Positions 18,102 through 37,290 of a stretch of DNA of 64,000 bases are shown piece by piece. Every line of letters begins with the position of its first letter. Position 1 is the first letter of the stretch. The position numbers were made by a program, and so were the translations under genes. Origin of the DNA: an uncultured Deferribacteres bacterium (GTDB lineage Bacteria > Zhuqueibacterota > JdFR-76 > DREG01); NCBI GenBank assembly GCA_964464595.1, contig CAYXGW010000002.1, forward strand, positions 753-64,752. The letters are read 5' to 3'. The notes beneath the pieces are model-generated. The model did no database searches, was not told the DNA's origin, and was given only the letters and a program-made list of their open reading frames with translations.

Positions 18102-18260
18102 TCTAGCTTGTCATTTCAACTTATGGTTTATTAATTATCCCGAATTAAATGTTAACTTGTTTGGATGCAATTATCAAGAAATATTAGTAAGAAACAAAGG
18201 AAAATGGATTAAAAAGGGAGGAAATACTTTATTTGAATTAAATAACAGATCAATTAGAAT

Positions 18261-20084
18261 TTAAAATACAGAAGAAACCTTTAAGGCTAATACTGTCATA
18301 TCATCAGCCTGGGGCATATTACCAACAAATTCTTCGATCTGATCATCTAGTTTGGCAACAATTTCCATTAATTTGTGGTTGGCCAAGCTACTAAGAAGTG
18401 GTTCTAATCTTTCTTCCCCATATTCTTCATTACTTGCATTCATGGCCTCGGTAATACCATCGGTAAACATGAACAAAACATCACCCATTTTTAATGTTAC
18501 TGTTGCTGACTGATAAGGTGCATCAGGCATAACTCCTAATATTAAACCACCGGTTTCCAAGGTCTCTAGGGATCCATCTGAATGAATTAAGTATGGAGGA
18601 TTATGACCTGCATTTGTGTATAAGATTGTTCTTTTTTTAACATCTAAAATACAATAGAAAAATGTAATAAATTTATCTAAAGTCGTATTTTTGTAAATGA
18701 TATTATTAATAATCGAAACCATTTCTTCAGGATTACGATAATCAATGGCAAGAGCCCTTAAGCTAGCTTGAAGATTTGCCATTAACATTGCTGCAGGTGT
18801 ACTTTTCCCCGAGACATCCGCAATTGCAATACCATAAATATCATCCGACAATTTAATACAATCATAATAATCTCCCCCAACTTCGCGACTGGAAACATTG
18901 CGGCCAAATATTTCGATACCGGAAATTTCAGGAAGATCGCTGGGAAGCAGTTGTTTTTGAATATCCCGGGCAATCATTAGTTCATCTTCTAGTCGTTGTT
19001 TCTCCAGCATCTCGTCAACTAATTGCGCATTCTCTATGGAAATAATGGTTTCATTGCCAAGAACTTCAAGAAATTCAAGCTCATCCTTGCTAACTTCTAG
19101 ATTATTAATTTTTTTGCCAATTCCAATAATCCCCAGGACTCGGTCCTTACTCACCATCGACAAAAGAATTTCGATCCCACCATTTATTAATATCTCTATT
19201 GACTCTTTGAGACCAGGCTGATCTTTAATATCCTCAAGTTTAATGTATTTTTTCCCTGAAGCAAAAACTTCAATAAGGTTTGATTTTATTGCACTAAAGT
19301 CTAATTCCTTGATTTCAAGGTTTGCTCCTTTAGCAACAACCATATTAAATTGGTCATGGCTGTCAATCATGATAATACATTTATTGATTAACAATTCCCC
19401 CATAATAGCAAATGATAGAACCTGCGCAATTTTATCTTCTTCAAGAGATGAATTCAATTCGCGGCTTATCTCGAACATTGTGTTTAATTCTTGAATTTTC
19501 TTGTCTAATTTTTTATTCGCTTCACGAACCTCATCAAACAACAAAGCCTTATCAACTGCAATTACAGCTAGATTAGCTAAGGACTCCAAAAAATCTATCT
19601 CATCTTGTGCAAAAGACATCTTACCAAATTTTTTACCATATACCAACATTCCAAGGTAGTTACTATCTGCAATCATCGGAATTATTATTTCTAATCCGTG
19701 TTTTCTGAACTCATCAAAGAATGGTTCACTGCGGTTTTCCAGTTTGTCTCTTGTTAGTGAGTTTTTTGGGATTTCCTGAAGTGAGAATTGCCTTCCTAAC
19801 AATTGAGTGGACAATCCTTTTACATTTTTTATATGTAAAATATTATTAGTATCCACTAGTAAGACCATTCCCTTACTTATCATCAACCTTCCCATTGGTG
19901 TTAACAAAACGTTATCCAAAATTGTCCTGAGTTCAAGACTGGAATTTAGAATTTTATTAATTTCAAAAAGGGAGGTTAATTCGAGGTATTTAATCTTGAG
20001 ATCATCAAACCCTTCAGATGTTTGTTTATGTATTTTGTTCTGCTTTCTCTGAGGATTGGGAATCGACTTATTTTCTTTTGCCAT
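18261..20084 (-). CDS. Tandem-GAF PP2C (SpoIIE/RsbU-type) serine phosphatase
   Basis: Two GAF-like regions are followed by a PPM phosphatase domain (GGDYYD, ADVSGKSTPAAMLMA, FMFTDGITEA). Confidence 0.85.
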   Translation of the reverse strand: MAKENKSIPNPQRKQNKIHKQTSEGFDDLKIKYLELTSLFEINKILNSSLELRTILDNVLLTPMGRLMISKGMVLLVDTNNILHIKNVKGLSTQLLGRQFSLQEIPKNSLTRDKLENRSEPFFDEFRKHGLEIIIPMIADSNYLGMLVYGKKFGKMSFAQDEIDFLESLANLAVIAVDKALLFDEVREANKKLDKKIQELNTMFEISRELNSSLEEDKIAQVLSFAIMGELLINKCIIMIDSHDQFNMVVAKGANLEIKELDFSAIKSNLIEVFASGKKYIKLEDIKDQPGLKESIEILINGGIEILLSMVSKDRVLGIIGIGKKINNLEVSKDELEFLEVLGNETIISIENAQLVDEMLEKQRLEDELMIARDIQKQLLPSDLPEISGIEIFGRNVSSREVGGDYYDCIKLSDDIYGIAIADVSGKSTPAAMLMANLQASLRALAIDYRNPEEMVSIINNIIYKNTTLDKFITFFYCILDVKKRTILYTNAGHNPPYLIHSDGSLETLETGGLILGVMPDAPYQSATVTLKMGDVLFMFTDGITEAMNASNEEYGEERLEPLLSSLANHKLMEIVAKLDDQIEEFVGNMPQADDMTVLALKVSSVF

Positions 20085-20116
20085 TTACTTTTCTATGTAA
20101 ATTTTGCCAAAGGATT

Positions 20117-20548
20117 TTATGAGGTAATGTATTTAGTCATCTCTATAACGTTCTTTTTAGTGGGCTGAATCGAAAACTTTACTTCGTCCATTAAAACTTT
20201 TATTAGATGAAGGCCAAGTCCACCTTTCCTAAATTCAGTAAGATAAGCACCCATGTCGTCAACACCAATATTATTATACTCAAATCCACTACCCTTGTCT
20301 ACAACAGAAACCACCATTTTTTTTGAGTTTAATTCTACATCGATATGGACATCTTTTGATTTTTCTCCTTTATAAGCGTGTTTCATAACGTTTGTGCAAG
20401 CTTCATCAACTGAGAGTTGTATTTTGTTAACGCTATCATCGTTAAAACCCGCTGTTTTGGCAATTTTCCCTACAAAATCACGAATTAAGTCAAGGAATTC
20501 ATCGTCACTTGGGATTACAAGTGAAAATTTTTTAACTTTACTCGGCAA
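20117..20548 (-). CDS. Anti-sigma regulatory factor-type Ser/Thr kinase (RsbW/SpoIIAB-like HATPase_c)
   Basis: It is 143 aa and carries an N-box (EACTNVMKHAY) and G-boxes (DKGSGF, GGLGLHLI). Confidence 0.75.
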   Translation of the reverse strand: MPSKVKKFSLVIPSDDEFLDLIRDFVGKIAKTAGFNDDSVNKIQLSVDEACTNVMKHAYKGEKSKDVHIDVELNSKKMVVSVVDKGSGFEYNNIGVDDMGAYLTEFRKGGLGLHLIKVLMDEVKFSIQPTKKNVIEMTKYITS

Positions 20549-20667
20549 AATCGAACCTCCGTTTAATCAAGTATTTTGCTTTGCAAATCATATATAGAAT
20601 TAGCACATCCAAATTACGGAACGGTATTAAAATAGTTACCAATAGAAGTTTCGTTTAGTTAGTGCTT

Positions 20668-21015
20668 CTATTTTCTAAAGTTTTGCACAGCTTCACTTTC
20701 ATCATCCACAATTTCGTACAAGCTTGGAAATCCTAACAAATCGAATATTTTAAACACTTTCTCAGACATGTTGGACATTTTGATATCACCATCATTCGAT
20801 CTGACATCTTCGATGAAACCCATAAAGACACCTAAACCTGCACTACTGATATAGGCTAATTTCTCACAATTTACGATGATCTTAAACCTGGTTTCATCAA
20901 CTAATTGTTTCAATGCTTCTTCAAAACTTGGCGCCGTGTGTGCATCTAAATATCCATCTAAATTCAAAACAGATATTTCATCAACATCTTTTCTCGTCAC
21001 AGCAAATTCACTCAT
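20668..21015 (-). CDS. STAS-domain anti-sigma-factor antagonist (RsbV/SpoIIAA-like)
   Basis: It is 115 aa with the STAS fold and a phosphorylatable serine region (ISSAGLGVFMG). Confidence 0.75.
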   Translation of the reverse strand: MSEFAVTRKDVDEISVLNLDGYLDAHTAPSFEEALKQLVDETRFKIIVNCEKLAYISSAGLGVFMGFIEDVRSNDGDIKMSNMSEKVFKIFDLLGFPSLYEIVDDESEAVQNFRK

Positions 21016-21033
21016 TTAATCCTCCGACAACGG

Positions 21034-23145
21034 TTAGGAATCAACTTTAACAACAATCATTGAGAGATCGTCGTGTTTTTTTGCATTTTTTGTAAATTTA
21101 GAAACATCATAAATTATTTTATTTAGAATTTCTCCCGCTGGCTTCTCATAGGTTTCATTGAGGACTTTCATTAAACGTTCCAATCCATATTCTTCTAACT
21201 TTGAATTTCTGGCTTCGTCTAGACCGTCCGTAAAAAATAGAAAAAAATCATTTTTATGCCAGCCTATTTCAATTTCCTCAAGAATTTTGTTAAATACAGT
21301 TCCACTATCAAGTGCGACTCCAATGCCAGGGGGTTGTAAGAATAAGGACTGTTTTTCCTTTGAAGAGAAATGAATAAACGGGCCATGCCCCGCCCGAGAA
21401 ATTGTTACTTTTTTCTCCTTTAAATCAAAAATAGCGTATATCATAGTTACGAATGTTTTTTGATCTAATGTTTCATATAAAGTTTTATTCACTTTTTCCA
21501 GCAAGATTCTTGGGGAATCGTAAAGGCTGGCATATGCACTTACTATTCCTTTTAATTCTGCCATATAAAATGCAGCAGAAAGCCCTTTTCCGGAAACATC
21601 TGCTATAACCACACCAAGTCTATCCTCACCAAGATCAATAAAATCAAAATAATCACCACCAACTTCGGTAGCCATTAAGCAATGTGCATCAATATCCAGT
21701 GAACCCTTTTCTGGCATTGCTTTTGGAAGAAGTCTCATTTGAGTATTACGGGCAACCATTAATTCTTGTTCTATCCTCTCCTTTTCAATCGATTGCTCAA
21801 TAAGCCTGGAATTTTCAATTGCCACAGAAGCTTGATTTGCAAAAGCTTGCAGCATTTCACGATCGTCCTGTTCGAAACCATATTCTTTTTCTTTCGTCGC
21901 ATACAAAATACCCATAACTCCATCCTTAGAAGTAAGCGGAACTCCTAAAATTGAACCTATGTTATTTTGATAATTTAAAATATATTCTGAACGACTATCT
22001 TTGGAAACATCATTCACTAAAACCGATTCTTTATTTTCGAAAATCCAACCGCTTAATCCTTCATTATTTTTGAAATGCATATTGGAAAGTTCTTTATTAG
22101 TGAGATTATGATATGATACAACACTTAGTTCGCCGTCTTCCTTTTTCATTTCAAGCCAGCTTGCGTCCGGGTTTAGAACATCATGTGTTAAGGTTGTCAC
22201 TTTTGATATCAACTCATCATAGCTCAAAACTGAACTAATATCTCTACTCAGGTTTTGTAAAGATTCAATCTCTCTAATTTTTTTCTCAAATATACTAGCT
22301 GTTGGTAAATGAAGCAATAAATTCAATTCCGCCAATACCAAGTAAGAACACATAAAATAAAAAGTAAAACTATTAAAGGACCCCAAAGTAAAACTATATG
22401 TATTAATCTCCTGAAAAATGTTGGATTCATAAACAAGAATCGCTCCCGGAATTAGAAACAATCCTGCCCAGCAAGCTATATACTTCTGTCTTTTATTTAG
22501 GTATGTCACCCAAGAAGTTCTAAAAGATAACAAAAATATTATTAAAAGCAGCAAGCTAAAAAACACCCATTCTAATGGCGTTTGACCTTGAAATGACCAG
22601 TCTGTTTTGAACATTTTAATTGTGTAATGCCTGTATAATACATACACAACAAATAAAAAAAGTCCGAACCGGAATAATTTATAAGTTTTTGCTTTACTTT
22701 TGTAATGAACTAAATCGCGCAGTAAGAAAAGTAAAACAATTAGAAATAAAGTAACAAAAACAGCAGTAAAAGTAGCACGAAAATCCAATTGAAGTGATCC
22801 AAGTAAATTTAAAGTACTTTCGGTGGATTTTTCGTTTTGGCTGGAAATAATCATTTTGGAAAGAGCTACTGAAATAAATAATCCCAAAGCTGCAAAAAAA
22901 GCAGTCTTAAGTTTATAAACGATATGCTGCTCCTGTTTACTGTGACGTTTATAAAGAAGAGATGTAGCCAATAAAAACACAGCTACTATTAGCGTTTCTC
23001 GCAGCCAATAAATAGGTGTTGGGAGTGTATCACGAAAAAGAAAAGGTAGATCAATAATGAAAATCAAAATGATTACGATCGAGATGGTTCCAATCAGAAA
23101 ATAATTACTTTTTTGTTGTAAAAACCGAATGATTGGTTTAATCAT
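21034..23145 (-). CDS. Polytopic-membrane (about 8 TM) GAF PP2C (SpoIIE/RsbU-type) serine phosphatase
   Basis: The N-terminal roughly 300 aa contain about 8 hydrophobic helices, followed by GAF and PPM domains (GGDYFD, ADVSGKGLSAAFYMA, FFTDGLDEA). The gene overlaps the upstream lipoprotein gene by 4 bp (ATGA). Confidence 0.8.
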   Translation of the reverse strand: MIKPIIRFLQQKSNYFLIGTISIVIILIFIIDLPFLFRDTLPTPIYWLRETLIVAVFLLATSLLYKRHSKQEQHIVYKLKTAFFAALGLFISVALSKMIISSQNEKSTESTLNLLGSLQLDFRATFTAVFVTLFLIVLLFLLRDLVHYKSKAKTYKLFRFGLFLFVVYVLYRHYTIKMFKTDWSFQGQTPLEWVFFSLLLLIIFLLSFRTSWVTYLNKRQKYIACWAGLFLIPGAILVYESNIFQEINTYSFTLGSFNSFTFYFMCSYLVLAELNLLLHLPTASIFEKKIREIESLQNLSRDISSVLSYDELISKVTTLTHDVLNPDASWLEMKKEDGELSVVSYHNLTNKELSNMHFKNNEGLSGWIFENKESVLVNDVSKDSRSEYILNYQNNIGSILGVPLTSKDGVMGILYATKEKEYGFEQDDREMLQAFANQASVAIENSRLIEQSIEKERIEQELMVARNTQMRLLPKAMPEKGSLDIDAHCLMATEVGGDYFDFIDLGEDRLGVVIADVSGKGLSAAFYMAELKGIVSAYASLYDSPRILLEKVNKTLYETLDQKTFVTMIYAIFDLKEKKVTISRAGHGPFIHFSSKEKQSLFLQPPGIGVALDSGTVFNKILEEIEIGWHKNDFFLFFTDGLDEARNSKLEEYGLERLMKVLNETYEKPAGEILNKIIYDVSKFTKNAKKHDDLSMIVVKVDS

Positions 23146-24416
23146 TGTGAAGATATCCTGATTAGATTAGGAGTCCCTAGCGCATTCCACTTTCCTATAA
23201 CTTTTCCATCTTCCGATATTTTTGTAACATTAAAATTACCCGCGTCTGAAACAATGCAACTTCCATCATATTCATCAACATCCAGAGATGTTGGATTCGT
23301 AAATCCGTCTAATTTAAGAATAATTGAACCATTCTTATCCAGTTTAACCAATTGGGAATTGTTGAAACCAGAACGCAAATCAAGCGCCCAACAATCTCCC
23401 GTTTTTTGATTTATATTAACTTGATGAACAAAATTAAAAGCTCCAACAGAAATAAGTAATTCTAAGTTGGAACTAAAATGTTTTACCATGGAAACATCTG
23501 CCACCCAAATAGAACCATCCTGGTAATTAATAGCTACATCTTCAGGTTGATCCAGATTCTCAATAGTGGATTTGGTAGTGTCAGTCAAATTAAATCCTGT
23601 AACTGTTTTGTCCAAAACGTCTGAAATCCAACAAATACCCGATGAAATATCGACCGAAATAGAAACCGGGTTAGAGAAATCTTCATCTATAACGAACAGA
23701 GTGCCTGATGTATCGCCAAAAGCTAGTTTTTTGGAATTTTGAAGAAGTATCCACAATCTATTTCTAGTTGGGTCAAAATCAAGGTCTAAAGGTGAATCAC
23801 TGATGTTAAACTTTTTTACTATTTCTCCATCCAGAGACATGTGCGCGACTTGGTTTAAGAAAAAATCGCTTACCCAAATTCCCTGTCCATTACCGATATT
23901 AGCCATTCCTGAAATATCAAAAAAATCACTTCTAGAAAAAAGGGTATGAGAAGCATCATGTGTTAATTGAAAAAGTTTACCAGTTGTTCTAATCCCAACC
24001 CACATACGAGATGGTCCGGGTGTAATGAAAACTTCATCAGATAGAGGGCCCTCATTAAATTCAGTAATTGCCTGAATTTTATACCTATGGGTAACATCAA
24101 ATAAAACTTCTTGATCATCATAGCGAGATGTATTACCAGGAACCACTGCAATTTCTACAAACCCGCTATCCTGCGATGTTTGCCTAAATATCTTAGTTCC
24201 AATATACCCGTTAATTTCGATATCATCCCAAGTTAAAGAAACGACTCTATCCAAAGAAATTACAGATAAACCTGTCAGCTTTCCCTGGGTAAATGGATTT
24301 TCCGGATCTAAAGGATTGTCGTGCTCACGATCTGCACAACCGTTTATTGCGACAATGAACAATCCTGCGTAAAATAAATAATGTGATTTTTTAAATTTGA
24401 ATAAATTCATCAGCAT
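23142..24416 (-). CDS. Lipoprotein with an Fn3-like domain and a beta-propeller (NHL/YVTN-like) domain
   Basis: It has a signal peptide and a lipobox-like AINGC. Repeated DxSG/IWV blades follow. Its stop overlaps the start of the membrane PP2C gene. Confidence 0.55.
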   Translation of the reverse strand: MLMNLFKFKKSHYLFYAGLFIVAINGCADREHDNPLDPENPFTQGKLTGLSVISLDRVVSLTWDDIEINGYIGTKIFRQTSQDSGFVEIAVVPGNTSRYDDQEVLFDVTHRYKIQAITEFNEGPLSDEVFITPGPSRMWVGIRTTGKLFQLTHDASHTLFSRSDFFDISGMANIGNGQGIWVSDFFLNQVAHMSLDGEIVKKFNISDSPLDLDFDPTRNRLWILLQNSKKLAFGDTSGTLFVIDEDFSNPVSISVDISSGICWISDVLDKTVTGFNLTDTTKSTIENLDQPEDVAINYQDGSIWVADVSMVKHFSSNLELLISVGAFNFVHQVNINQKTGDCWALDLRSGFNNSQLVKLDKNGSIILKLDGFTNPTSLDVDEYDGSCIVSDAGNFNVTKISEDGKVIGKWNALGTPNLIRISSQ

Positions 24417-24715: not shown

Positions 24716-26707
24716 TTAAGACAAATTCATTCTTTTCAACACCTCTTTTATTCTGCCTGAACGTGTTTTATTTCCATTTGAATTCTTGCGACTGCGATAT
24801 AACAATTGTAATCTTTGATAATCGCTTTTAATTTTTGCATATATTAATTTATTTTCTATAGTCACTGCAACTAGCCGAGCGATTTTTTCAAGAATTTGAA
24901 CTAATTCTGTATAGGGTCTTAGTTTATTGGTTGGGTCATCTAATATAAAAAATCCGATAATTTTCTTTTTCCGTGTTGTGATTGGGATAAGTAAAATATC
25001 TTCACAATGCCACATTTTCGGATCGGTTACGGATGTAATAGGCGTCCCATAAATTCTTTTAATAATATTCAGAGGATTATTACGTTCTTGCACAAGATAT
25101 GAATGTGAAATTCGGCATTTCTGTTTCAAAAGCGGAATAATTTCTTCAATAGAAAAATGCAACCTACTTAATATTCTGGCCTTTTCTTTATTCTCTAAAG
25201 CAATTGATTTTAAATTTAATCGGTGGGTGGATTTACTAAAAATTGCGAGAATGGGCAAATTATAACCCAATGAAAGTTTAATGGTCCAAACGATCTCCCG
25301 AAGTAGATTTTCCAACGGCAAATCGATGCAAAATGTTTCCAAAATTGTAAAGATTTGCTTAAAATGTTTATGCTTATTTTCCAATTTTGAAAAGCGCGTA
25401 TGGAATTCATAAAGACCGGAAATGTAATTGGATAATATTTCCGCTCGTTCCAAAATTTGGGTAGATGGGGTTTTGCCTGTTTCAGGGTTCTCAAGAATAA
25501 TAAAACCCAGGCAATTTTCATCGGAAGTCCGCAAATTTATAAAAAGACGATCCCCTTTTTCCCAATTATTACCTTCTTTCCATAGTTTGGATTGAAACAA
25601 TTCCACACCAGGCTTTCGTTCTGTTTCATTCAGCACACTTTGGTGAACAAATCGAACAAATTCCGATCTTGGAAATAATTTTCGCACTTCTTTTTCTGTG
25701 AAAAAATCCGAGCGAATTTCTGTTTTATCTCCGTGGATTTTAGCGCCAATTTCTATTTCATTTTGATATTGGTGCTTAGTTGTATGATACAAAAATAAAG
25801 ATGCATACCCGAACTTAAAATTTCTTTTCGGAATTTCAGCTAATTTCATATGAAATAGCTGAATTAAATTTTTGCGAAAGTAATTATTTAATTGATATAA
25901 CTCATGAAATAAAGGTTTTATATCGGTTACTCGTCTTTCTGTTGCTTGTGATTCTTCTTTCGACAATACTTTAAAATAACCACGGAAACCTGAGAAGAGA
26001 GCTTCCGGCCGTGTATATGGGGTTAATTGAAGTTCAACCGGAATAATACCTCTTGTTTTATGGATAACTTCCGTGTCAATCATTAATGTATCCTGACGGC
26101 CTTCTATAGAAGAATGCCATTGGTAGAATATTTCTCGATCTTCGTCGGCAATAAAATCCATCAAATAGGTTTTGTAGAATTCACTAGAGGAAAGCCCAAG
26201 GATATTTTGTAGATTATCATCAAAAGAAATAAAGCGGCCACTTTCGTTAATTTCAAAAAAGGAAGTTATATGAGATAAAGTTGATTCAACTTGAAAATCA
26301 AATGCAATATTTTTTGTTGATACATTTTGTTCTTTTGCTCGATCTAAAGTAAAAGGAATTGCAGTTACGGCACCCTCAACCTTTACAATATAATCAAATA
26401 CTCCACTCTTTACTGCATCCTCCGCTATCCGCTCCTGTTTTTCATCTACAAGGAGTACAAGGGGTATCTTTTTGGCGAAATCCAGTATATTCTCATAGAA
26501 CTGATTGCCGTTGGTTTTAATTAATTCAGCATCAAAAAGAAATGCATGATAATTATTTTGATCAAGAGAATTTTTTATCTCTTTAAGACTGCTAGCCTTC
26601 TCTAATTTATATTTGTTTTGATGAAATTGTAATACTCGGACAATAGAGCTTAGAAATGCCTTGTCATGGCCGATATAGAGTACATTGGTTGGTTGTTCAG
26701 ATGGCAT
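24716..26707 (-). CDS. Receiver-like (REC) - PAS - GAF-like regulatory protein with no recognisable output domain
   Basis: The N-terminus has a receiver-like fold (VLYIGHDK...FLFDAEL). A PAS-like middle region and a GAF-like C-terminus follow. Confidence 0.45.
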   Translation of the reverse strand: MPSEQPTNVLYIGHDKAFLSSIVRVLQFHQNKYKLEKASSLKEIKNSLDQNNYHAFLFDAELIKTNGNQFYENILDFAKKIPLVLLVDEKQERIAEDAVKSGVFDYIVKVEGAVTAIPFTLDRAKEQNVSTKNIAFDFQVESTLSHITSFFEINESGRFISFDDNLQNILGLSSSEFYKTYLMDFIADEDREIFYQWHSSIEGRQDTLMIDTEVIHKTRGIIPVELQLTPYTRPEALFSGFRGYFKVLSKEESQATERRVTDIKPLFHELYQLNNYFRKNLIQLFHMKLAEIPKRNFKFGYASLFLYHTTKHQYQNEIEIGAKIHGDKTEIRSDFFTEKEVRKLFPRSEFVRFVHQSVLNETERKPGVELFQSKLWKEGNNWEKGDRLFINLRTSDENCLGFIILENPETGKTPSTQILERAEILSNYISGLYEFHTRFSKLENKHKHFKQIFTILETFCIDLPLENLLREIVWTIKLSLGYNLPILAIFSKSTHRLNLKSIALENKEKARILSRLHFSIEEIIPLLKQKCRISHSYLVQERNNPLNIIKRIYGTPITSVTDPKMWHCEDILLIPITTRKKKIIGFFILDDPTNKLRPYTELVQILEKIARLVAVTIENKLIYAKIKSDYQRLQLLYRSRKNSNGNKTRSGRIKEVLKRMNLS

Positions 26708-26893
26708 TTATTTTCCTAATTTATTTTTAGTTAATATAAATAAAATAACTTAAATAACCAAGAACATTCTCACTTAAATATTTTCAGATTTACATGGAAT
26801 GGCGAATTATTCCTTAATATTATTAAATAGATTAAAAGGGTTTTTACTCACAACGCAATTTTGTAACAAAAACAGATTACATGCCAAGTAAAA

Positions 26894-28531
26894 CTATGCG
26901 TAAGAATACTCTTGATTTGAAATGATAGAAGTACTTTGTATCGCTATCGTTTTTAAAACATTCTGAACATCTTCGATAATATTTTCCTGAATTATGCTGT
27001 TACCCAGTTTATTATTTGCATTTTTAATATCTTCAAAGAGAATTTTTTCTTCTGATTTCAATCGGTCTAGCAATAAATCCACACTTTGATTAATCTCAAT
27101 AAGTGATTTCATTTTTGTTCTCATTGACTTAATCTCATTCTCAATGTAAGAGTAATGAGAAATAGAACATGAGTTATTCTCAGAAATTAATTTCTTTCCA
27201 AAAGAGCTAACTTCATCCAACCTTTTAAAAACCTCATTCGTTAGATGATGAGCATCCAATGAGAGTTTGTGAATTTCTTCGGCAAGTACACCAATTGCCC
27301 TACCTTTCTCTCCAGCGCTTGCTGCTTTTATCTGTGCATTCACACCAATTAGTTCTAAACTCGAACCAATTTCATTAATTGAACCAATGTAAGAAGAAAG
27401 ATTAGCTGCCTTTTTTGCTAACGTAGACAAGGTAGCAGATATTTCCTGCTCTACTTTGTCATTTTTAAAAGCAAATTCAGCAATCTCCTGTATTTCTTTT
27501 TCGACTTCCATCAAGAATGATGTTTCAGATTCGAAACTAGCATTCAAGGATTCTTGTACTTGATTGTCCTCTTTTAGAAAATCTTTTATCTCAAAAAATG
27601 TAATGGCGACTTGATCATTTGTATGTTGTCTATTATTCCAAATGTTTATTAACTCATTTGACTGCAATTCACATTGACTAATGGCATGTTGGACTTCATT
27701 AGAAAATTTGACCGGATCGTCACCATAAAGCGGCAATTCATTAAATCGCTTCGACATCTCCTGCAAAGAAGAAACTAAAGTATTTGTTTTCTGAACACAG
27801 GGTTTATCTATCTCAACAAAGCTTAGAACTTTTGCTGTTGTTTCATGAATTTTCTTTGTCAATTTTGAAATGTATTTTGCAAACCTAATTCTTGTATCTT
27901 GACTATTAATAACAGATTCCAGATCTTTTTGAGCAGTTTCAAGCATTCCATCTATACTAACATTTTGTTTACTAACGGAATCGTACAATCTCTCAAGAGA
28001 TTTACCAATATGCTCTGTTATTTCTTCAGATTGGGACTGCATTTCCGGATATTTCAATTTAATCTGATCTGCTAATTTTTCCACGTCTTCTGCAATCTTC
28101 ACGAAGCCATTATTCTCAATATTCAATCTGGTGCCTTCTACTCTTGTGAATGTACCGAGCATTTTTAGCATTTTTACAATATTGCTGAATCCTTCCAATG
28201 AAGTGGAGAAATCAGAGAGGTATTCAGTAATTTTCACCAAAAGTTTTAAATTTTCCTCTGCTTTTTCCTGAGTAAGCATAAAATGAATACAGATAGAATT
28301 TAAAATGCTCCAAATACCATCTAACGCTGTTTGGACCCCTTCCCCGGATATCCTTTCTGCAGTAATGGAAGATAGCGTCGATAACTCTTTTGATCGAAAC
28401 TCAATATCTTGCAAATCTGATCTACCGGAAAGCAATTCCTCTATATATTTAGAAACCATGTTCTTTAGACGATTTGCTAGTGTAGAACTTTCCTGGCTTG
28501 ATTCCGCACAGAACTTGTTGATAGCTTCCAT
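26894..28531 (-). CDS. Soluble coiled-coil protein carrying a methyl-accepting chemotaxis protein (MCP) signalling domain
   Basis: NAQIKAASAGEKGRAIGVLAEEIHKLS matches the highly conserved MCP signalling core ([27 protein letters not shown]). There are no TM segments and the rest is predicted coiled coil. Confidence 0.6.
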   Translation of the reverse strand: MEAINKFCAESSQESSTLANRLKNMVSKYIEELLSGRSDLQDIEFRSKELSTLSSITAERISGEGVQTALDGIWSILNSICIHFMLTQEKAEENLKLLVKITEYLSDFSTSLEGFSNIVKMLKMLGTFTRVEGTRLNIENNGFVKIAEDVEKLADQIKLKYPEMQSQSEEITEHIGKSLERLYDSVSKQNVSIDGMLETAQKDLESVINSQDTRIRFAKYISKLTKKIHETTAKVLSFVEIDKPCVQKTNTLVSSLQEMSKRFNELPLYGDDPVKFSNEVQHAISQCELQSNELINIWNNRQHTNDQVAITFFEIKDFLKEDNQVQESLNASFESETSFLMEVEKEIQEIAEFAFKNDKVEQEISATLSTLAKKAANLSSYIGSINEIGSSLELIGVNAQIKAASAGEKGRAIGVLAEEIHKLSLDAHHLTNEVFKRLDEVSSFGKKLISENNSCSISHYSYIENEIKSMRTKMKSLIEINQSVDLLLDRLKSEEKILFEDIKNANNKLGNSIIQENIIEDVQNVLKTIAIQSTSIISNQEYSYA

Positions 28532-28579
28532 TTAATTATTTTTTTCGAATCTGTTTTTGTTTAATTTTTTCCAAACTAT

Positions 28580-29515
28580 TTATGTATAAAAATATTTACG
28601 AATTGTTACTCTATTGCCTTGTTGATTAAATCTAACCTCATCCATAAGGTTTTTTATCATTTTCAAACCTAGTCCATGGATAGCCCCCACCTCCTCATCG
28701 CTAGTGTCAAATGAAGCCACTCCAGAACCCTCATCTTCAACCGAAAACTGTACGAAAGATTGATCAATTGTCATTTGGATATTAATTTGCCGATCTGCAT
28801 AAAATGCATCATTCAATCTTTCCTGCTTAGCTTTTTCAAACATTGTGCAATTATCTTTAACTAGAAATTCTTCTTTCCATTCGGATTTTAAAGCGAGGTT
28901 ACCATGCTCCTGGGCATTTTGAACAGTTTCCTGAAATGCAAGCAGCACATTTTGAATTCCCAAATAATTCATTTTTGTATATTTCTGCAATAAATCTACT
29001 AATTTAATATTCATTGTATCTATATCTAAATTACCTGAACGAACAGTAAAATTTACATTTAGGTGATTTACTAAAGGTTCAAACCCAGCACTTACCTGCT
29101 TTTGATTCTCTAATTTGTTTATTTTAAATAGAAGTTCCTCCAACTTTGAATCGCTGAAAGGCGGTTCCAGAAAATGAATAGCATTGAAAATACTACCTTC
29201 TAAATTCGAATCATAATTTGAAACAGAATCAATCAAAATAATTTCCAGGTCTGGATTAATCGATCCAATTATTTTAAGGAATTCCAAACAATCCAAATTT
29301 TGTGTCTCAGCATCATATAAAACAAGATTCACATCTCGAGTTACTTCCAGATGATAAATCGCATCCTTACAACTTTTAATGTTCTCAATATGGCAGCCAT
29401 TCTGCTTTAGAGTTTTATTAAGAAAAACACTTCTTTTTAATCCGTCTGCACTAATTACAAGGATGTTTTTTGATAGTTTTGTGGGTTCATTTAAAAATAA
29501 TTCAAAGCATTTCAT
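28580..29515 (-). CDS. Receiver domain fused to an anti-sigma-factor-type HATPase kinase (RsbW-like)
   Basis: The N-terminal REC-like fold is ILVISADG...LVLYDAETQNLD...IILID. The C-terminal HATPase_c has an N-box (ETVQNAQEHGN) and G-boxes (DEGSGV, HGLGLKMI). Confidence 0.65.
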   Translation of the reverse strand: MKCFELFLNEPTKLSKNILVISADGLKRSVFLNKTLKQNGCHIENIKSCKDAIYHLEVTRDVNLVLYDAETQNLDCLEFLKIIGSINPDLEIILIDSVSNYDSNLEGSIFNAIHFLEPPFSDSKLEELLFKINKLENQKQVSAGFEPLVNHLNVNFTVRSGNLDIDTMNIKLVDLLQKYTKMNYLGIQNVLLAFQETVQNAQEHGNLALKSEWKEEFLVKDNCTMFEKAKQERLNDAFYADRQINIQMTIDQSFVQFSVEDEGSGVASFDTSDEEVGAIHGLGLKMIKNLMDEVRFNQQGNRVTIRKYFYT

Positions 29516-29604
29516 AATATTTTTCTTATTTGTAAGTGTTTATATACAAATAAGTTATTGCCTTAACTTTTTTCATTAATTACAAAATATAATTAATAAA
29601 GCTC

Positions 29605-29913
29605 TCAAACGTGTCGGATCTTAATTAGCTTGTCCAAATTTATTGAACTGAACAAAGTATGTAAATTATTATGTATACCCGCCACAGCTAATTCACGGTT
29701 TTGTTTTTTGAGCTGATGTAGAAGAACCAAAATTTTACTGATACCGGAACTAGTTATTGTAGGTACGTAAGTCAAGTCCACGACCACATTCTTCCCTGAT
29801 TCATTCAGTGCATTATTAAATGCATTCTTAAGATTTTCTCCGTCAGATTCATTTATTGGCCCGGATATTTTTACCTGCACCTCAGATTCTGATTTTGAAA
29901 TAGATATATCCAT
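29605..29913 (-). CDS. STAS-domain anti-sigma-factor antagonist
   Basis: It is 102 aa with the STAS fold and a conserved Ser region (ITSSGISKILVLL). Confidence 0.7.
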   Translation of the reverse strand: MDISISKSESEVQVKISGPINESDGENLKNAFNNALNESGKNVVVDLTYVPTITSSGISKILVLLHQLKKQNRELAVAGIHNNLHTLFSSINLDKLIKIRHV

Positions 29914-29921
29914 AACTTCTC

Positions 29922-31250
29922 CTAGTTTTTCAACTCTAATAGCTGTTGATGTTTATTTGCCTTAGATATTTCGTTCGATTTTATTTTACCGGTTATTTCT
30001 AATGCCAATAGAGACGCATCGTCATCTAAACTTGAATTTCCATGCCAAGTTGTAACTTCCTTCAGTAACTTGGGTAGAGAATTTTCAAAACTCGTTTTGC
30101 GGTTTTCGTTTAGGAACTTGACAAAACGAATAAGACCAAACTCCTCACCATTGGATTCTTTAGCCTCTGTAATGCCGTCTGAGTACAAAAAAAGCCGATC
30201 CCCTGGTTCTAGACAAACTTTGTAATCATTGTAAGCAACCTCCTCCGTAAATCCTATGGGAAAATTAGACGACTTTAAAGTGGTTGGATTACTTGAATTC
30301 CGGATTAAAACAGGGTCCGGATGACCGGCTGAGGAAAATATAAATTCGTAAGTTTCAATGTTTAGAATTCCATAAATGAGAGTAAAAAATTGACCGGTTT
30401 CCATATCGACTGGAAATTGTTGGTTTAATTGATGCAATACTTTAGCAGGAGAATTAATTTGAAAGGTTGAGGACCCTTTGATTTTCTTTCTTAAAATAGA
30501 TGATTGATTTTGAACAGGAGACAAAAGATGGCTTAGAGTAACAGATTTTAATGCAGAAGCTACGCCATGACCACTTACATCTAATACAAAAAAGCCGATG
30601 TGTTTATTATCGAGCCAATATAAATTTAGAATATCACCCGCTAGTTCTGTACAGGGTTTAAATTGCCAATCAAATTTAATCCCTTCGACTTCAGGAAGGG
30701 CTTTTGGCAAAAGCGCTTCTTGTATCTTGGCAGCAGCTTCAAGATCTTTTTTCATCCGATTATTGGCTTCGGTAATAATATGAATGTTTTTTTCTTCCAG
30801 CTCTTTGTTCTTGTATGCAAGTGTACGCTCCAGGTTTGTGATTCGCTCTCCGGCACGCACTCTTGCAAGTAACTCACTATGATTAAATGGTTTTGTTAAA
30901 TAATCATCTACTCCCAGGTCAATAGCCTGAACAACATCCTTTTTCTCTCCTTTTGCAGTGATCATGATAATGTAAACATAGTGATTCAATTTAGATGAAC
31001 GAATTCGCCGAGTTAGCTCTAAGCCATTTAATTTCGGCATCATCCAATCAACAACCATTAATTGAGGAGGATCAGGTTTTTGCATCTCTTGCCAAGCTTC
31101 TAATCCATTTCGCGCTAAAACAATATTATACCCTTTATTTTCAAAAATAATTTTCAACACTTGCAAAATCGTTGGTTCATCGTCAGCAATTAATATTTTA
31201 AGTTTACTACTAAAATCTTTATATTCTGCATTAGAATTTGAATCCGTCAT
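29922..31250 (-). CDS. Response-regulator PP2C phosphatase (REC + SpoIIE/PPM; RsbY/RssB-like)
   Basis: The N-terminal REC domain has the conserved ILIADDE ... VVDWMMPKLNG ... K motifs. The C-terminal PPM domain follows (AGDILN, LDVSGHGVASALKS, LYSDGITEA). Confidence 0.85.
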   Translation of the reverse strand: MTDSNSNAEYKDFSSKLKILIADDEPTILQVLKIIFENKGYNIVLARNGLEAWQEMQKPDPPQLMVVDWMMPKLNGLELTRRIRSSKLNHYVYIIMITAKGEKKDVVQAIDLGVDDYLTKPFNHSELLARVRAGERITNLERTLAYKNKELEEKNIHIITEANNRMKKDLEAAAKIQEALLPKALPEVEGIKFDWQFKPCTELAGDILNLYWLDNKHIGFFVLDVSGHGVASALKSVTLSHLLSPVQNQSSILRKKIKGSSTFQINSPAKVLHQLNQQFPVDMETGQFFTLIYGILNIETYEFIFSSAGHPDPVLIRNSSNPTTLKSSNFPIGFTEEVAYNDYKVCLEPGDRLFLYSDGITEAKESNGEEFGLIRFVKFLNENRKTSFENSLPKLLKEVTTWHGNSSLDDDASLLALEITGKIKSNEISKANKHQQLLELKN

Positions 31251-31547
31251 AAACCCCTTTTCCTTAGAAAATCAATAAATTAAAATTGCTCATATTATAA
31301 ATCGACTACTATTTTTAGAATCTTTAGCGGATGTTAATTCCCTTTTATCTAAAGAATAGAGTCTAAACGAATATTAATAATAATTTCATTTTGGGTAAAA
31401 TGGCGGTTTTTCCCCTCAGATTTTTTACAATGGAATTAGATAACATAAGTCTAAACAACTGAAATATTTGATTTTTAAATTCTCAAGTGTCATAATCATA
31501 ATCTGAATTGTTTTTGTATTATTTTTAGATAATAAATTGGAGTCCAA

Positions 31548-33776: not shown

Positions 33777-35456
33777 CTAATAACCTTCCGCAATACCCTT
33801 ACCTCTTGGATCGGCACCTCCGGTAAATCGAATCGGTTTGCCATTTTCATATTCAATAGCAAGTCCATGAGCATTTCCCAATCCTTTTACAACTTGGACA
33901 TTATGTCCTAATTTAATAAGTTGATCCCGGATTGATTCTGCAATTCCTGTCTCTACTGCAATCCTATCAGGCTCAATAAAGCTTATGCGAGAAGCTGCGA
34001 TTGCTTGCTGGATATTCATACCAAATTCAATCATGTTTAGCACCATTTGAGGAACAGTCTGGCCAATTGTATGTCCACCAGGGGTACCAATAGCAACCCG
34101 TGGTTTACCGTTTTTAAAGATTAGTGTGGGACAATCACCGGAGAGTTTATGACGTCCGGCATGAGCGTCCATAGGATTGCCTTTCGGTTCGAATGTGCAG
34201 TAAGCTAAAGAATTATTCAACCAGATACCTGTGCCTTTTGGCATGATTTTACTGCCAAACGAATTACCTAAAGTTTGAGTTGCACTTACGATATTTCCCC
34301 ATTTATCTGCAACAACAAAATGTGTTGTATTGATACCATCATTTGCAAAATTGCTAGGAGGAACGAATTGTTTCGCTTCATCAGGCGAAATAGCCAAAAT
34401 CTGCCGGCTCCAATATTCATTCGATAAAAGTGTTTCAAGGGGTGGAGGATTCTTTTCAGGATCTCCGGCATACCGAAGCCGACACCAAAAAGCGTGTTTC
34501 GTTACTTCAGCAAACCTGTGAAGATATTCGGAGCTATTGTGACCGACTGCCTGGTTATCATACAAACTCATCATTCCCAATCGAATTAGTGACGGAAAAG
34601 CCGTTGAAGGCGGAGAGGCGGTTATCACCTGATATTCATGATAATCAATCCGGATAGGATCATACCATTCAGCCTCATTGATCTTCATATCTTCGATTGA
34701 AAGAAATCCTCCGGCTTTTTGCATGGCTGCATCAATAGCTTGTCCAATCTCTCCACCATGAACAACTTTTGCTCCCTGTTTTGCAATTTTCCGAAAAGAA
34801 TCAGCGAGGTCTTTTTGGATAAGCAACTCTCCAGTACTTAATGGTACATTGTCTTTACCATAAAATTCTTTTGCATGATCAGGAAAATTTGGATACGCGC
34901 TTTTGATTAGCCGGGCTGTCCTGTCATTTAGAATCACCCCATTTTCGGCAGTCTTTATTGCTGTTTCGAATAGTTCTTCCCAGCCTATGGACCCAAAACG
35001 TTTCCACATAGACTCCCAGGCAATTACATTTCCTGGAGTGGAGACTGCCTTTGCCCCCCGTCTATTTTTCTTATAATTCGGTGTTGGAGCACGATAAACA
35101 TCTGAGTCCACGTTTTTTGGAATTCGTCAGCTGCAATTTAAAAACAGAGCTTGTTCTTTTTCGGCATCATAAACAAGTACAGTCCCATAGCCGCCAATTC
35201 CTGACATCATGGGTTCTACAACATTGAGCATTGCTGCGATAGAAACAGCCGCATCGAAAGCATTTCCACCGGATTTTAAAATATCTAGACCAGCTTTTGT
35301 CGCCAATGGATGAGCCGAACTAACCATACCAAGGGTTCCAATGGCCGGTACCGTATTAGAATTTTGAGTTGAATATACTGTACTACTTCGATCACAAGAA
35401 GTGCTAAGAAACAATATTTGAAGAAATAGAAAAAGAACTATTCGTCTCATGAGCAT
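33777..35456 (-). pseudogene. ggt: Gamma-glutamyltranspeptidase gene interrupted by a single in-frame TGA (signal peptide plus N-terminus in 35127-35456, the rest in 33777-35111)
   Basis: Both ORFs are in the same frame and together cover a complete GGT (MLMRRIVLFLFL... signal peptide, then the Thr-nucleophile region TGIWLNN and the GG motif TPGGHTIGQ). The minus-strand codon at 35127-35129 is TGA. Confidence 0.75.
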
Positions 35457-35994: not shown

Positions 35995-37290
35995 CTATTG
36001 CAACAGCACCATCTTGCGAGTTTCAACAAACGAGCCTGCCTCTAAGCGGTACAGATAGACCCCGCTCGCCAACTGTCTTCCCGCATGGTCTCGTCCATCC
36101 CACTCAATCTGATACGCACCAGCGGGCTTTCTTTCCGTGAGCAGTGTTCTAACTTCCTGGCCCAACTGGTTGTAAACTGTTACTTCGACATCACTGACCG
36201 TTGAAAGCTGATAGGTGATGACTGTGGACGGATTAAAGGGATTTGGATAATTCTGATCTAGCGTAAATGAAGACGAGATTCTTGTGGAAATCTCCTCGAC
36301 CGAGGTTGTGGACTCTACGCTCCGAAATACACGGCTAGAAGCCCCGGCAAAAATGTCGCCGCTACTATTGATGGCAAAAGTTTTGACATTATTAAAACCC
36401 TTCAAGCCGGTATTGATTTGGATCCAGTTGTCGCCGTTGTCGATGGAACGAAACACACCACCGGTACGAGTCCCGGCAAAAATGTCACCGCTGCTATTGA
36501 TGGCAAGAGCTTGGACATAGGTATTTTTCAAGACGGTATTATTGGTTTGGATCCAGTTGTCGCCATTATTGTTGGAGCGAAACACACCCCACGAAGAAAG
36601 CCCGACAAAAATGTCACCGCTTCTATTGATTGCAAGAGCTTGGACAAAATTAAAACTCTTCAAGCAGTTATTGATTGGGATCCAGTTATCGCCGTTGTCC
36701 GTGGAGCGAAACACACCACCGACAAAAAAATTTGTCCCGGCAAAAATGTCGCCGCTGCTATTGATGGCAAGAGCAACGATACTACGATATATAATATCTG
36801 TCAAGCCGTTATTGATTTGGATCCAGTTTTCGCCGTTGTCCGTGGAGCGAAATACGCCGTAAAGATGTGTCCCGGCAAAAATGTCACCGCTGCTATTGAT
36901 GGCAAGAGCTGGGATATCAGCATTATATGTAAATCCATTATTGAATTCTGTCCAGTTATCACCGTTGTCGGTGGAGCGAAACACACCGCCTAAATGAGTC
37001 CCGACAAAAATGTCGCCGTTGCTATTGATGGCAAGGGACCTGACCCAAGTATTTTCCAAGACGGTATTATTGGTTTGGATCCAGCTATCGCCGTTGTCCG
37101 TGGAGCGAAACACACCGCCATAATAAGTCCCGGCGAAAATGTCGTCGCTGCTATTAATGGCAAGTTCATATATAGACGATCCAACGGGTTGATTGGTTTG
37201 CTGCCAGAAATTCGGCTGTGAATATCCAAGACTACTAATGAATGATACTGTGAGCAGCGTAATAAGCGGCTTGAATGTGTTTTTTTTCAT
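35995..37290 (-). CDS. T9SS-secreted protein with 8 BNR/Ycf48-like propeller repeats (STDNGDNWIQ...) and a C-terminal T9SS type-A sorting domain
   Basis: It has a signal peptide and repeats of about 42-50 aa with a DNGDNW core. The C-terminus LDQNYPNPFNPSTVITYQL...GVYLYRLEAGSFVETRKMVLLQ is a typical Por secretion-system CTD. Confidence 0.8.
   Translation of the reverse strand: MKKNTFKPLITLLTVSFISSLGYSQPNFWQQTNQPVGSSIYELAINSSDDIFAGTYYGGVFRSTDNGDSWIQTNNTVLENTWVRSLAINSNGDIFVGTHLGGVFRSTDNGDNWTEFNNGFTYNADIPALAINSSGDIFAGTHLYGVFRSTDNGENWIQINNGLTDIIYRSIVALAINSSGDIFAGTNFFVGGVFRSTDNGDNWIPINNCLKSFNFVQALAINRSGDIFVGLSSWGVFRSNNNGDNWIQTNNTVLKNTYVQALAINSSGDIFAGTRTGGVFRSIDNGDNWIQINTGLKGFNNVKTFAINSSGDIFAGASSRVFRSVESTTSVEEISTRISSSFTLDQNYPNPFNPSTVITYQLSTVSDVEVTVYNQLGQEVRTLLTERKPAGAYQIEWDGRDHAGRQLASGVYLYRLEAGSFVETRKMVLLQ

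Follow-up and report, generated by a model that had tools for sequence, protein, structure and literature searches.

Five consecutive minus-strand genes, which we call A, B, C, D and E in the order in which they would be transcribed, lie within a 64-kb stretch of contig CAYXGW010000002.1 from an uncultured Deferribacteres bacterium (hereafter the window, meaning that whole stretch; G+C content ~35%). Our analysis points to A-B-C-D as one partner-switching module with two-component input, in which the fourth conserved component is the sensor-less, double-hairpin, chemoreceptor-like protein D and not a sigma factor, a tentative reading to which we give a probability of about 0.45. Partner switches are usually seen as controllers of sigma factors, and chemoreceptor hairpins as parts of arrays that depend on CheA and CheW; the gene content here instead suggests that D is a non-sigma partner or scaffold of a phosphorelay-gated partner switch.

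The original prediction for this region had named five open reading frames (ORFs) and assigned domains to each, and at this level it stood up well. The frames match the ORF list exactly (Table 1), and Pfam recovered the domains of A, B, the kinase of C, D and the receiver of E, with the receiver of C coming through the Protein Data Bank (PDB), whereas the PAS domain of E stayed sub-threshold and its GAF domain faint. The genes are closely spaced, with 8 nt between the stop of A and the start of B, 89 nt between B and C, 48 nt between C and D, 186 nt between D and E and 299 nt to the next gene, and no terminator-like site was found in the gaps between A and E or in that 299-nt gap. Upstream of A the sigma-70-like matches were weak only, with 43 in the region as a whole versus 32 expected. 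None of the five proteins contains a hydrophobic segment.

Comparison with relatives revealed which of these genes belong together. In four contigs carrying a D ortholog of 86% identity (source named candidate division KSB1 at NCBI, the lineage to which we also assign the window; assembly GCA_022566355.1), A-B-C-D-E and the downstream genes are syntenic. In a more distant relative (L005; D 55% identical), the order A-B-C-D is kept, with the predicted D start (TTG) overlapping the C stop by 4 nt, while E is absent and unrelated opposite-strand genes lie beyond D. The conserved unit is therefore the four genes A-B-C-D, with E an accessory neighbour, such that the expectation of co-conservation held for A-B-C-D at both levels of D identity but not for E. 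Between the window and L005 lineages, identity is 73% for A, 73% for B, 49% for C and 55% for D, so that C and D are more diverged than A and B. Two scans of JGI metagenomes, one with automatic patterns and one with the hand-made pattern GVLAEEIHK, returned no further members of the D clade, which for this reason we regard as rare.

The first two genes supply the phosphatase and the switch protein. The SpoIIE match of A spans profile positions 2-191 of 192 in Pfam, and its receiver is canonical, with equivalents of D12, D13, D57, T87 and K109 all present in an alignment with CheY; the phospho-acceptor Asp and the conserved Lys, whose retention the original prediction had left to be checked, are thus both in place in this protein. 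A is probably the phosphorylation-gated phosphatase of the switch, and the nearest solved structure to it is Pseudomonas aeruginosa RssB (3eq2, E=1e-40). B keeps the phosphorylatable Ser of its class, Ser55 within TITSSG, which aligns with Ser58 of SpoIIAA and Ser56 of RsbV such that the SSG falls on the DSSG/DSTG phospho-site of those proteins, and this Ser is conserved in the 86% relative L001 and in L005.

The third gene encodes a receiver-like region (residues ~15-135) followed by the kinase (residues ~155-311). The receiver scored 26.7 bits against Response_reg, just below the Pfam cut-off of 30.2, and we count it as confirmed because it matched the receiver of NtrC1 in the PDB (E=7e-6). 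An alignment with CheY, checked against NtrC1, shows that the phospho-acceptor Asp is retained but the conserved Lys is not, with K109 replaced by Pro, D12 by Ala and T87 by Asp; in the L005 ortholog the acidic pair reads T,Q and the K109 position is Leu, and in P0010, a more distant receiver-kinase protein encoded after a STAS gene and beside csrA, fliW and an HDOD gene, the acceptor Asp is lost too. With the conserved Lys and some of the acidic-pocket residues lost, this domain is a pseudo-receiver, whose role is more probably docking or dimerisation than phosphorylation. The kinase motifs are present (N-box ExxxNAxEHGN, G1 DEGSG, G2 HGLGL), and HATPase_c_2 occurs without HisKA. The kinase domains of C, P0010 and P0009, the latter being the nearest relative of the C kinase domain outside KSB1 (39% identity), share an insertion of ~26 residues after the N-box (HGNLxLxSEWKEE...; region 28580-29100 in the window), which together with a shortened ATP lid sets them apart from SpoIIAB and from the window's other RsbW-like protein. 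Both features mark the three proteins as a GHKL subfamily of their own, with ties to flagellar and che loci. As a possible source of the C pseudo-receiver we considered the CheY proteins encoded beside relatives of D, and its best matches are indeed to the CheY upstream of cheA; since the receiver of A also scores highest there, the comparison does not discriminate.

The fourth gene encodes the chemoreceptor-like protein. D matches MCPsignal at residues 352-485 with 51.6 bits, above the Pfam cut-off of 34.6, so the methyl-accepting chemotaxis protein (MCP) assignment on which the original prediction depended is secure, and the peptide quoted there, AGEKGRAIGVLAEEIHKL, corresponds to residues 406-423. 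The description of D as having a single recognisable chemoreceptor signalling core has to be replaced, since the N-terminal half holds a second, sub-threshold MCPsignal match (18.7 bits, E=0.0017, residues 91-225) with a tip-like element of its own, and an AlphaFold2 (AF2) model built from a 63-sequence alignment (predicted local distance difference test score, pLDDT, 85; predicted template modelling score, pTM, 0.61) folds the protein into two tandem hairpins, 2-135/142-265 and 273-405/407-544, with tips near residues 136-141 and at 406. The best fold matches of this model are chemoreceptors, and PDB matches of D are TM1143, TM14 and Tsr. The C-terminal tip, NAQIKAASAGEKGRAIGVLAEEI, can be aligned with those of TM1143 and Tsr and, through the TM1143 alignment, reads S, K, S and I at F373, E385, R388 and F396 of Tsr, which we take to be the trimer, CheW and CheA contact positions; in the N-terminal tip the equivalents of E, R and GF are preserved. 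D lacks transmembrane segments (maximum Kyte-Doolittle hydrophobicity, KD19, of 1.29) and has no sensor or ligand-binding domain in Pfam and NCBIfam searches, in agreement with a model composed entirely of helical hairpins, and no strict or relaxed match anywhere along its length to the methylation consensus [ASTG][ASTG]xx[EQ][EQ]xx[ASTG][ASTG]. Because both sensor domain and methylation sites are missing, D looks like a scaffold or target and not like a receptor.

Word-index homolog searches with D, with C and with the 63-sequence family alignment each returned 5-6 proteins, the third without gain, and it was an exhaustive profile search (threshold E<=1e-30) that uncovered the larger family of D, which we refer to as FAM. 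At this threshold FAM comprises 576 representative clusters, nearly all of ~600 aa and matching end to end (example L020:7995-9836; representatives P0012-P0160). A profile of the KSB1 D clade alone gives a full-length single match to each of the 149 representatives retrieved, with a median E of 9e-39 (Z=1e6), whereas ordinary MCPs of the same loci match it little past the tip, with E of ~1e-3 or worse. Judged by these profile matches, D is a divergent, tail-less member of a separate family of soluble MCP-like proteins with two hairpins, one that seems not to have been described before. The N-terminal tip consensus of FAM, IESARLG....GFxTLAxDVxKLA, retains the canonical E, R and GF and is clearly similar to an MCP tip; the motif SxQFHDITRQQxEHV (HDxxRQ) is found in 128 of 149 representatives (86%) and an acidic-hydrophobic C-terminal tail ending ...GDNVELF in 126 of 149 (85%). 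Both are absent from the D clade (P0001, P0002, P0004), in which the motif Gln and the whole tail are lost; D itself keeps the motif Asp.

The genomic setting of FAM connects D to chemotaxis operons. A scan of one genome per species, which used HDxxRQ as its pattern and is thus biased to motif-bearing members, found at least 527 relatives, and the neighbourhood counts given here refer to the best 80 of these (loci L011-L090), almost all from Geobacteraceae, Desulfuromonadales and Desulfobulbales. The usual order is MCP, REC-HisKA-HATPase (REC denoting a receiver), CheY, FAM, a protein of ~115 aa, CheY and CheA, then CheR/CheB/CheD/CheW/MCP. In 64 of the 80 loci CheA is encoded no farther than 8 kb away, and a match to RsbW or PP2C occurs in one, the opposite of the pattern in the window, where an RsbW-type kinase and a PP2C phosphatase are present and CheA is not. 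The ~115-aa protein directly follows FAM in 46 of 77 loci, ahead of cheY-cheA (for example L020:9849-10202), and adopts the STAS fold according to hhalign comparison with STAS proteins (probability 91%, E=1e-6), with the phospho-Ser site replaced (DLTG) and a conserved Cys-rich C-terminus, CKHNxxxxCIWxGG. The same order is known from alpha-proteobacterial che operons, which run from the soluble MCP icpA/MCP514 through the STAS-only cheS and cheY1 to cheA, and in which CheS binds CheA (PMC12654446, PMC8466855), as shown in Sinorhizobium meliloti (PMC12654446). Because FAM loci pair the family member with a STAS-fold protein and with CheA at these frequencies, we take the association of an MCP-like protein, a STAS protein and a GHKL kinase to be ancestral. 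The KSB1 operon keeps this trio, with an RsbW-type Ser kinase in the place of CheA and with a phosphorylatable STAS protein and a dedicated phosphatase added.

Around the operon, chemotaxis and sigma-factor genes were conspicuous by their absence. Neither CheA nor CheW is encoded in the window or in the ~6 kb past its end, no che gene turned up over the ~27 kb to one side of the operon and the ~39 kb to the other side, no sigma factor was found among window ORFs of >=100 aa, and no CheY, Hpt or FlgM is encoded near the operon. The original prediction had taken the lack of CheA and CheW nearby as a sign of co-option; the lack itself was borne out in the window, but it is weak evidence when taken alone, as most MCP genes lie dispersed, apart from che clusters (PMC2577667), and some KSB1 clades carry chemotaxis and flagellar genes (PMC9012183). 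That D belongs to a che-operon family and yet is detached from che genes does fit the co-option idea.

Relatives of A and C hint at their origin and at candidate inputs for the module. P0009 is encoded directly upstream of a REC-PP2C protein with a full-length identity of 48% to A, within a che/flagellar cluster (L007) that runs MCP, MCP, CheW, CheA and then, divergently, CheR, P0009, the REC-PP2C protein, Hpt, an FlgM-like protein, fliD and fliS. By its gene content this layout is that of the Pseudomonas HptB-HsbR-HsbA system with HsbR split in two, and A and C likewise resemble a split HsbR/CrsR. No Hpt, hybrid kinase or CheA that could serve as input for A is encoded in the window, whereas L007 has Hpt and CheA, and L001 has REC-PAS-HK (HK, histidine kinase), REC-HK and REC-HDOD genes divergently upstream of A (L001:2172-6119), inserted between the FMN reductase gene and A and missing from the window. 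These L001 two-component genes are candidates for the input kinase of A. The L001 REC-HK is 24-25% identical to the REC-HK proteins encoded upstream of FAM members, a generic likeness that we did not use as evidence.

Putting these components together, we infer the contacts between the proteins, the course of the signal and its effect in the cell as follows. A histidine kinase or phosphorelay, unlinked here but with hybrid kinases encoded next to the operon in close relatives such as L001, would phosphorylate the receiver of A, and activated A would dephosphorylate B at Ser55, with C re-phosphorylating B. C would act as the hub, binding either unphosphorylated B or D, such that the phosphorylation of B would decide whether D is held or free, and the pseudo-receiver of C would serve as a docking module and not as a phospho-acceptor.

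Several lines of evidence favour this module. The set of kinase, phosphatase and STAS protein is complete with intact motifs, the A-D spacing is tight and free of intergenic terminator-like sites, the A-B-C-D order is kept at both 86% and 55% D identity with C and D overlapping by 4 nt in L005, and the 64 kb hold no sigma factor, CheA or CheW. In rsbV-rsbW-sigB and spoIIAA-AB-AC operons the sigma-factor gene follows the STAS and kinase genes, and D occupies this very slot, which argues for D as the target of the switch. The recurrence of the MCP-like/STAS/GHKL-kinase association in FAM loci, the binding of the STAS protein CheS to CheA, the greater divergence of C and D relative to A and B, and the existence of STAS proteins with non-sigma partners, as known for HsbA (PMC6482189), all argue in the same direction. 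Other observations weigh against it. Apart from the window, co-conservation has been seen in no more than two lineages; the tips of the two D hairpins are still near the family consensus, so that D may still bind the partners of the che-operon members, probably CheW/CheA or other receptors; CheA and CheW could be encoded elsewhere in the genome; the ATP-lid region of C is short compared with SpoIIAB, which makes its kinase activity a prediction and not a certainty; and C has no CheW-like domain that could account for binding to an MCP tip. A bolder version, which we think improbable, would have an array protein leave chemotaxis to fill the sigma-factor slot of the switch, with the C pseudo-receiver docking on an ancestral CheY-binding, CheZ-like surface of D (its catalytic Gln lost) and with B~P/B toggling the C-D contact.

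The conserved tips lead to a different explanation, one that we consider rather unlikely, in which D is a structural member of a cytoplasmic chemoreceptor array whose CheA and CheW are encoded elsewhere, CheA or a hybrid kinase phosphorylates A, and A, B and C form a chemosensory output in which the target of C is a sigma factor or FlgM-type protein encoded elsewhere. Such a scheme has been proposed for Shewanella Che1-CrsR/CrsA (PMC9855816) and for Pseudomonas HptB-HsbR-HsbA, and at che1 of S. oneidensis two MCPs, Che proteins and CrsR/CrsA belong to a single unit (PMC9855816). The adjoining of the nearest relatives of A and of the C kinase domain in L007, the closeness of both D tips to the consensus of the che-operon family, the usual lack of linkage between MCP and che genes and the chemotaxis and flagella encoded by some KSB1 clades are all in keeping with it. 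An array member of this kind sits less easily with the distance to any che gene on either side of the operon, with the loss from D of the HDxxRQ motif and C-terminal tail that 85-86% of FAM representatives keep, with the lack of methylation sites and sensor domain, or with a C-D coupling tighter than would be expected of a receptor serving a distant kinase.

It is also conceivable, if improbable, that D and E are functionally independent neighbours that are merely co-transcribed. D stays directly after C across 45% divergence of D and with a start/stop overlap, and its wider family is tied to STAS and GHKL-kinase genes, which speaks for more than chance proximity; but many partner-switch modules are encoded apart from their targets, such as HsbR/HsbA with RpoS and FlgM (PMC6482189), several other SpoIIE/STAS/RsbW genes in the window indicate a lineage-specific expansion of such modules, and E is dispensable in the L005 lineage. 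We regard it as very improbable that D is a catalytically inactive offshoot of a family of CheZ-like phosphatases and acts solely on receiver domains, binding those of A, C or E to read or protect their phospho-state, independently of partner switching. The idea draws on a resemblance of the FAM consensus [AS]xQFHDITRQQ to the AxxFQ-DxxxQ active-site motif of CheZ (PMC7750401), on one FAM member with a weak NCBIfam CheZ match (E=0.0045), on the acidic-hydrophobic FAM tail, which recalls the CheY-binding peptide of CheZ, on the CheY genes that flank family members and on the motif Asp, though not the Gln, retained by D. The motif is equally like the H-box of HisKA_3, and since D has neither the Gln nor the tail, the idea has little to stand on. 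Homology of the FAM motif to CheZ was unsupported by hhalign, in which FAM and E. coli CheZ gave a probability of 0.4 with a different region aligned, and we treat it as a motif-level resemblance plus the weak NCBIfam match.

Comparison of the A-B-C-D module with known systems shows where it is familiar and where it departs from them. It shares with the RsbU/RsbY-RsbV-RsbW and SpoIIE-SpoIIAA-SpoIIAB switches of Firmicutes a PP2C phosphatase, a STAS protein, a GHKL kinase, the conserved Ser and N/G1/G2 motifs, and the gene order antagonist, kinase, third partner. RsbY of Bacillus cereus has a REC-PP2C architecture, and so does A. Unlike in those switches, the third gene is MCP-like instead of a sigma factor, and C has an N-terminal pseudo-receiver and the insertion after the N-box. 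HsbR of the P. aeruginosa/putida HptB-HsbR-HsbA system and CrsR of S. oneidensis che1 also have a receiver-gated PP2C, an RsbW-type kinase and a STAS antagonist, and are linked to flagellar or chemosensory genes, with a cytoplasmic chemoreceptor in the same transcription unit in Shewanella (PMC6482189, PMC9855816). HsbR and CrsR are single REC-PP2C-kinase polypeptides, whereas here A and C are split with the STAS gene between them and the kinase has a degenerate receiver of its own; the operon is also without CheA, CheW, CheY, Hpt, FlgM or a sigma factor nearby, and its linked D is sensor-less. In SypE-SypA of Vibrio fischeri, too, a single protein unites a receiver with an RsbW-type kinase, and it acts on a STAS protein with a non-sigma output (PMC10120452), but the one chain of SypE runs kinase-REC-PP2C, its receiver is functional, and there is no chemoreceptor-like partner. 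The statement in the original prediction that a receiver fused to an RsbW-type kinase is unusual therefore did not survive, given that HsbR, CrsR and SypE all combine the two (PMC6482189, PMC9855816, PMC10120452); what is distinctive in this operon is the split over two genes and the degenerate receiver.

On the chemoreceptor side, the IcpA/MCP514-CheS arrangement has a soluble MCP gene followed by the STAS-only cheS, cheY and cheA, and FAM occurs in the same order in Desulfuromonadota. IcpA/MCP514 differs from D in its protoglobin sensor and in having just one signalling domain, of the 36H class, and phosphorylation of CheS is not known, whereas B has a dedicated Ser kinase and phosphatase in an operon without CheA. 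DosM of the F9 cytoplasmic arrays of Vibrio cholerae is, like D, soluble and sensor-less, with a proposed role as a structural scaffold (PMC7534058, PMC9321776). In architecture its two tandem signalling hairpins resemble those of D, of which the N-terminal one is below the Pfam threshold. No triple-CheW protein (CheW3) was found in the window or in the 80 FAM loci, where CheW-like ORFs are 100-313 aa long and mostly ~160 or ~300 aa. In Nautilia profundicola, a partner-switch STAS protein has been predicted from gene neighbourhood to act on a neighbouring chemoreceptor (Mo et al., mBio 2022, PMC9239204), in a different phylum and with a fused bifunctional REC-PP2C-kinase, as compared by description. 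For the proposed partner-switch/chemoreceptor hybrid the operon is conserved, but a link of this kind had already been described in Shewanella che1 and predicted in Nautilia. Receivers with RsbW-type kinases (HsbR, CrsR, SypE), STAS proteins in che operons (CheS) and sensor-less receptors with double signalling domains (DosM) are all known. What is new is the arrangement, with a split HsbR-like pair, a pseudo-receiver kinase and a conserved operon holding a motif-less, tail-less FAM member with no che genes around, which makes it a new combination of known parts and not a new kind of system.

If a sensor-less MCP-like protein does replace the sigma factor, two signalling architectures can exchange parts, with a STAS protein and a GHKL kinase as the common link, as in CheS-CheA and RsbV-RsbW, and the four proteins would offer an experimentally simple system for studying the function of MCP hairpins outside arrays. 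Were the bolder version with docking of the C pseudo-receiver on D true, D would be the first MCP hairpin to work without CheA/CheW as a regulated partner of an RsbW-type Ser kinase, and as a corollary FAM in the che operons of Desulfuromonadota would be an array-integrated CheY-P phosphatase in hosts without annotated CheZ.

Table 1. Coordinates of the operon genes and of the region upstream (positions in the window)
Feature	Position	Strand	Description
Gene A	29922..31250	-	442 aa; REC-PP2C (SpoIIE-type) phosphatase; Pfam Response_reg 106 bits, SpoIIE 147 bits
Gene B	29605..29913	-	102 aa; single-domain STAS, anti-sigma-antagonist type; Pfam STAS 50 bits
Gene C	28580..29515	-	311 aa; pseudo-receiver and RsbW/SpoIIAB-type GHKL serine kinase; HATPase_c_2 47 bits
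Gene D	26894..28531	-	545 aa; soluble, sensor-less tandem MCP-like hairpins; MCPsignal 51.6 bits
Gene E	24716..26707	-	663 aa; receiver, PAS-like region and probably two GAF-like regions; accessory neighbour
Intergenic region upstream of A	31251..31547	.	flanked by divergently transcribed FMN reductase gene; likely operon promoter region

FAM is the more novel by-product of this analysis; it is large and merits a study of its own. The extended motif [AS]xQFHDITRQQxEH resembles both the CheZ active site and the HisKA_3 H-box, CheY genes flank the family members, and Geobacter has no annotated cheZ (PMC2577667, Table 1); FAM could be an array-resident CheY-P phosphatase. The most distant of the word-index matches, P0005, has motif and tail intact (L006:346-2196) and is encoded directly downstream of a sigma-54 activator with a Fis-type helix-turn-helix C-terminus (L006:1-96), and sigma-54 activators occur in 21 of the 80 FAM loci.

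Gene E and the genes beyond it add to the signalling content of the region. E, present in the 86% relatives, scored 37.7 bits against Response_reg and 20.6 bits against PAS_9 (below the cut-off of 27), with a faint GAF match (E=0.054) to the C-terminal half of the profile and a weak PDB match to a GAF-like region; its AF2 model from the single sequence was too poor to use (pLDDT 33), which leaves the GAF assignment weak. In the alignment with CheY, its receiver retains both the phospho-acceptor Asp (D57) and the conserved Lys (K109), with D12 changed to His and an 8-residue insertion before the Pro equivalent to that of the KP motif. Directly downstream, 16695-24416 on the minus strand holds a second signalling block, conserved in the 86% relatives, in which an NHL-repeat protein overlaps a membrane GAF-SpoIIE protein by 4 nt and is followed by a STAS protein, an RsbW-like kinase, a second GAF-SpoIIE protein and a HAMP-nucleotidyl cyclase; a further GAF-SpoIIE protein is encoded at 10204-11523. 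PP2C partner-switch genes have multiplied strongly in this lineage.

Elsewhere in the window, two housekeeping genes are interrupted. The biotin carboxylase gene accC (41349-42722, plus strand) has an in-frame TAA at 41787-41789 (AAKK*AKIIGYP; Ile in relatives), at the end of an A-run, which may be an assembly error or the mark of a pseudogene. The gamma-glutamyltranspeptidase gene (33777-35456, minus strand) has an in-frame TGA at 35127-35129 (FLNCS*RIPKN), with both halves matching the same Pfam family, and this stop could reflect error, decay or recoding. A BNR/sortilin-repeat protein encoded at 35995-37290 on the minus strand carries a type IX secretion C-terminal sorting domain (Por_Secre_tail), consistent with a KSB1 lineage related to the FCB group.

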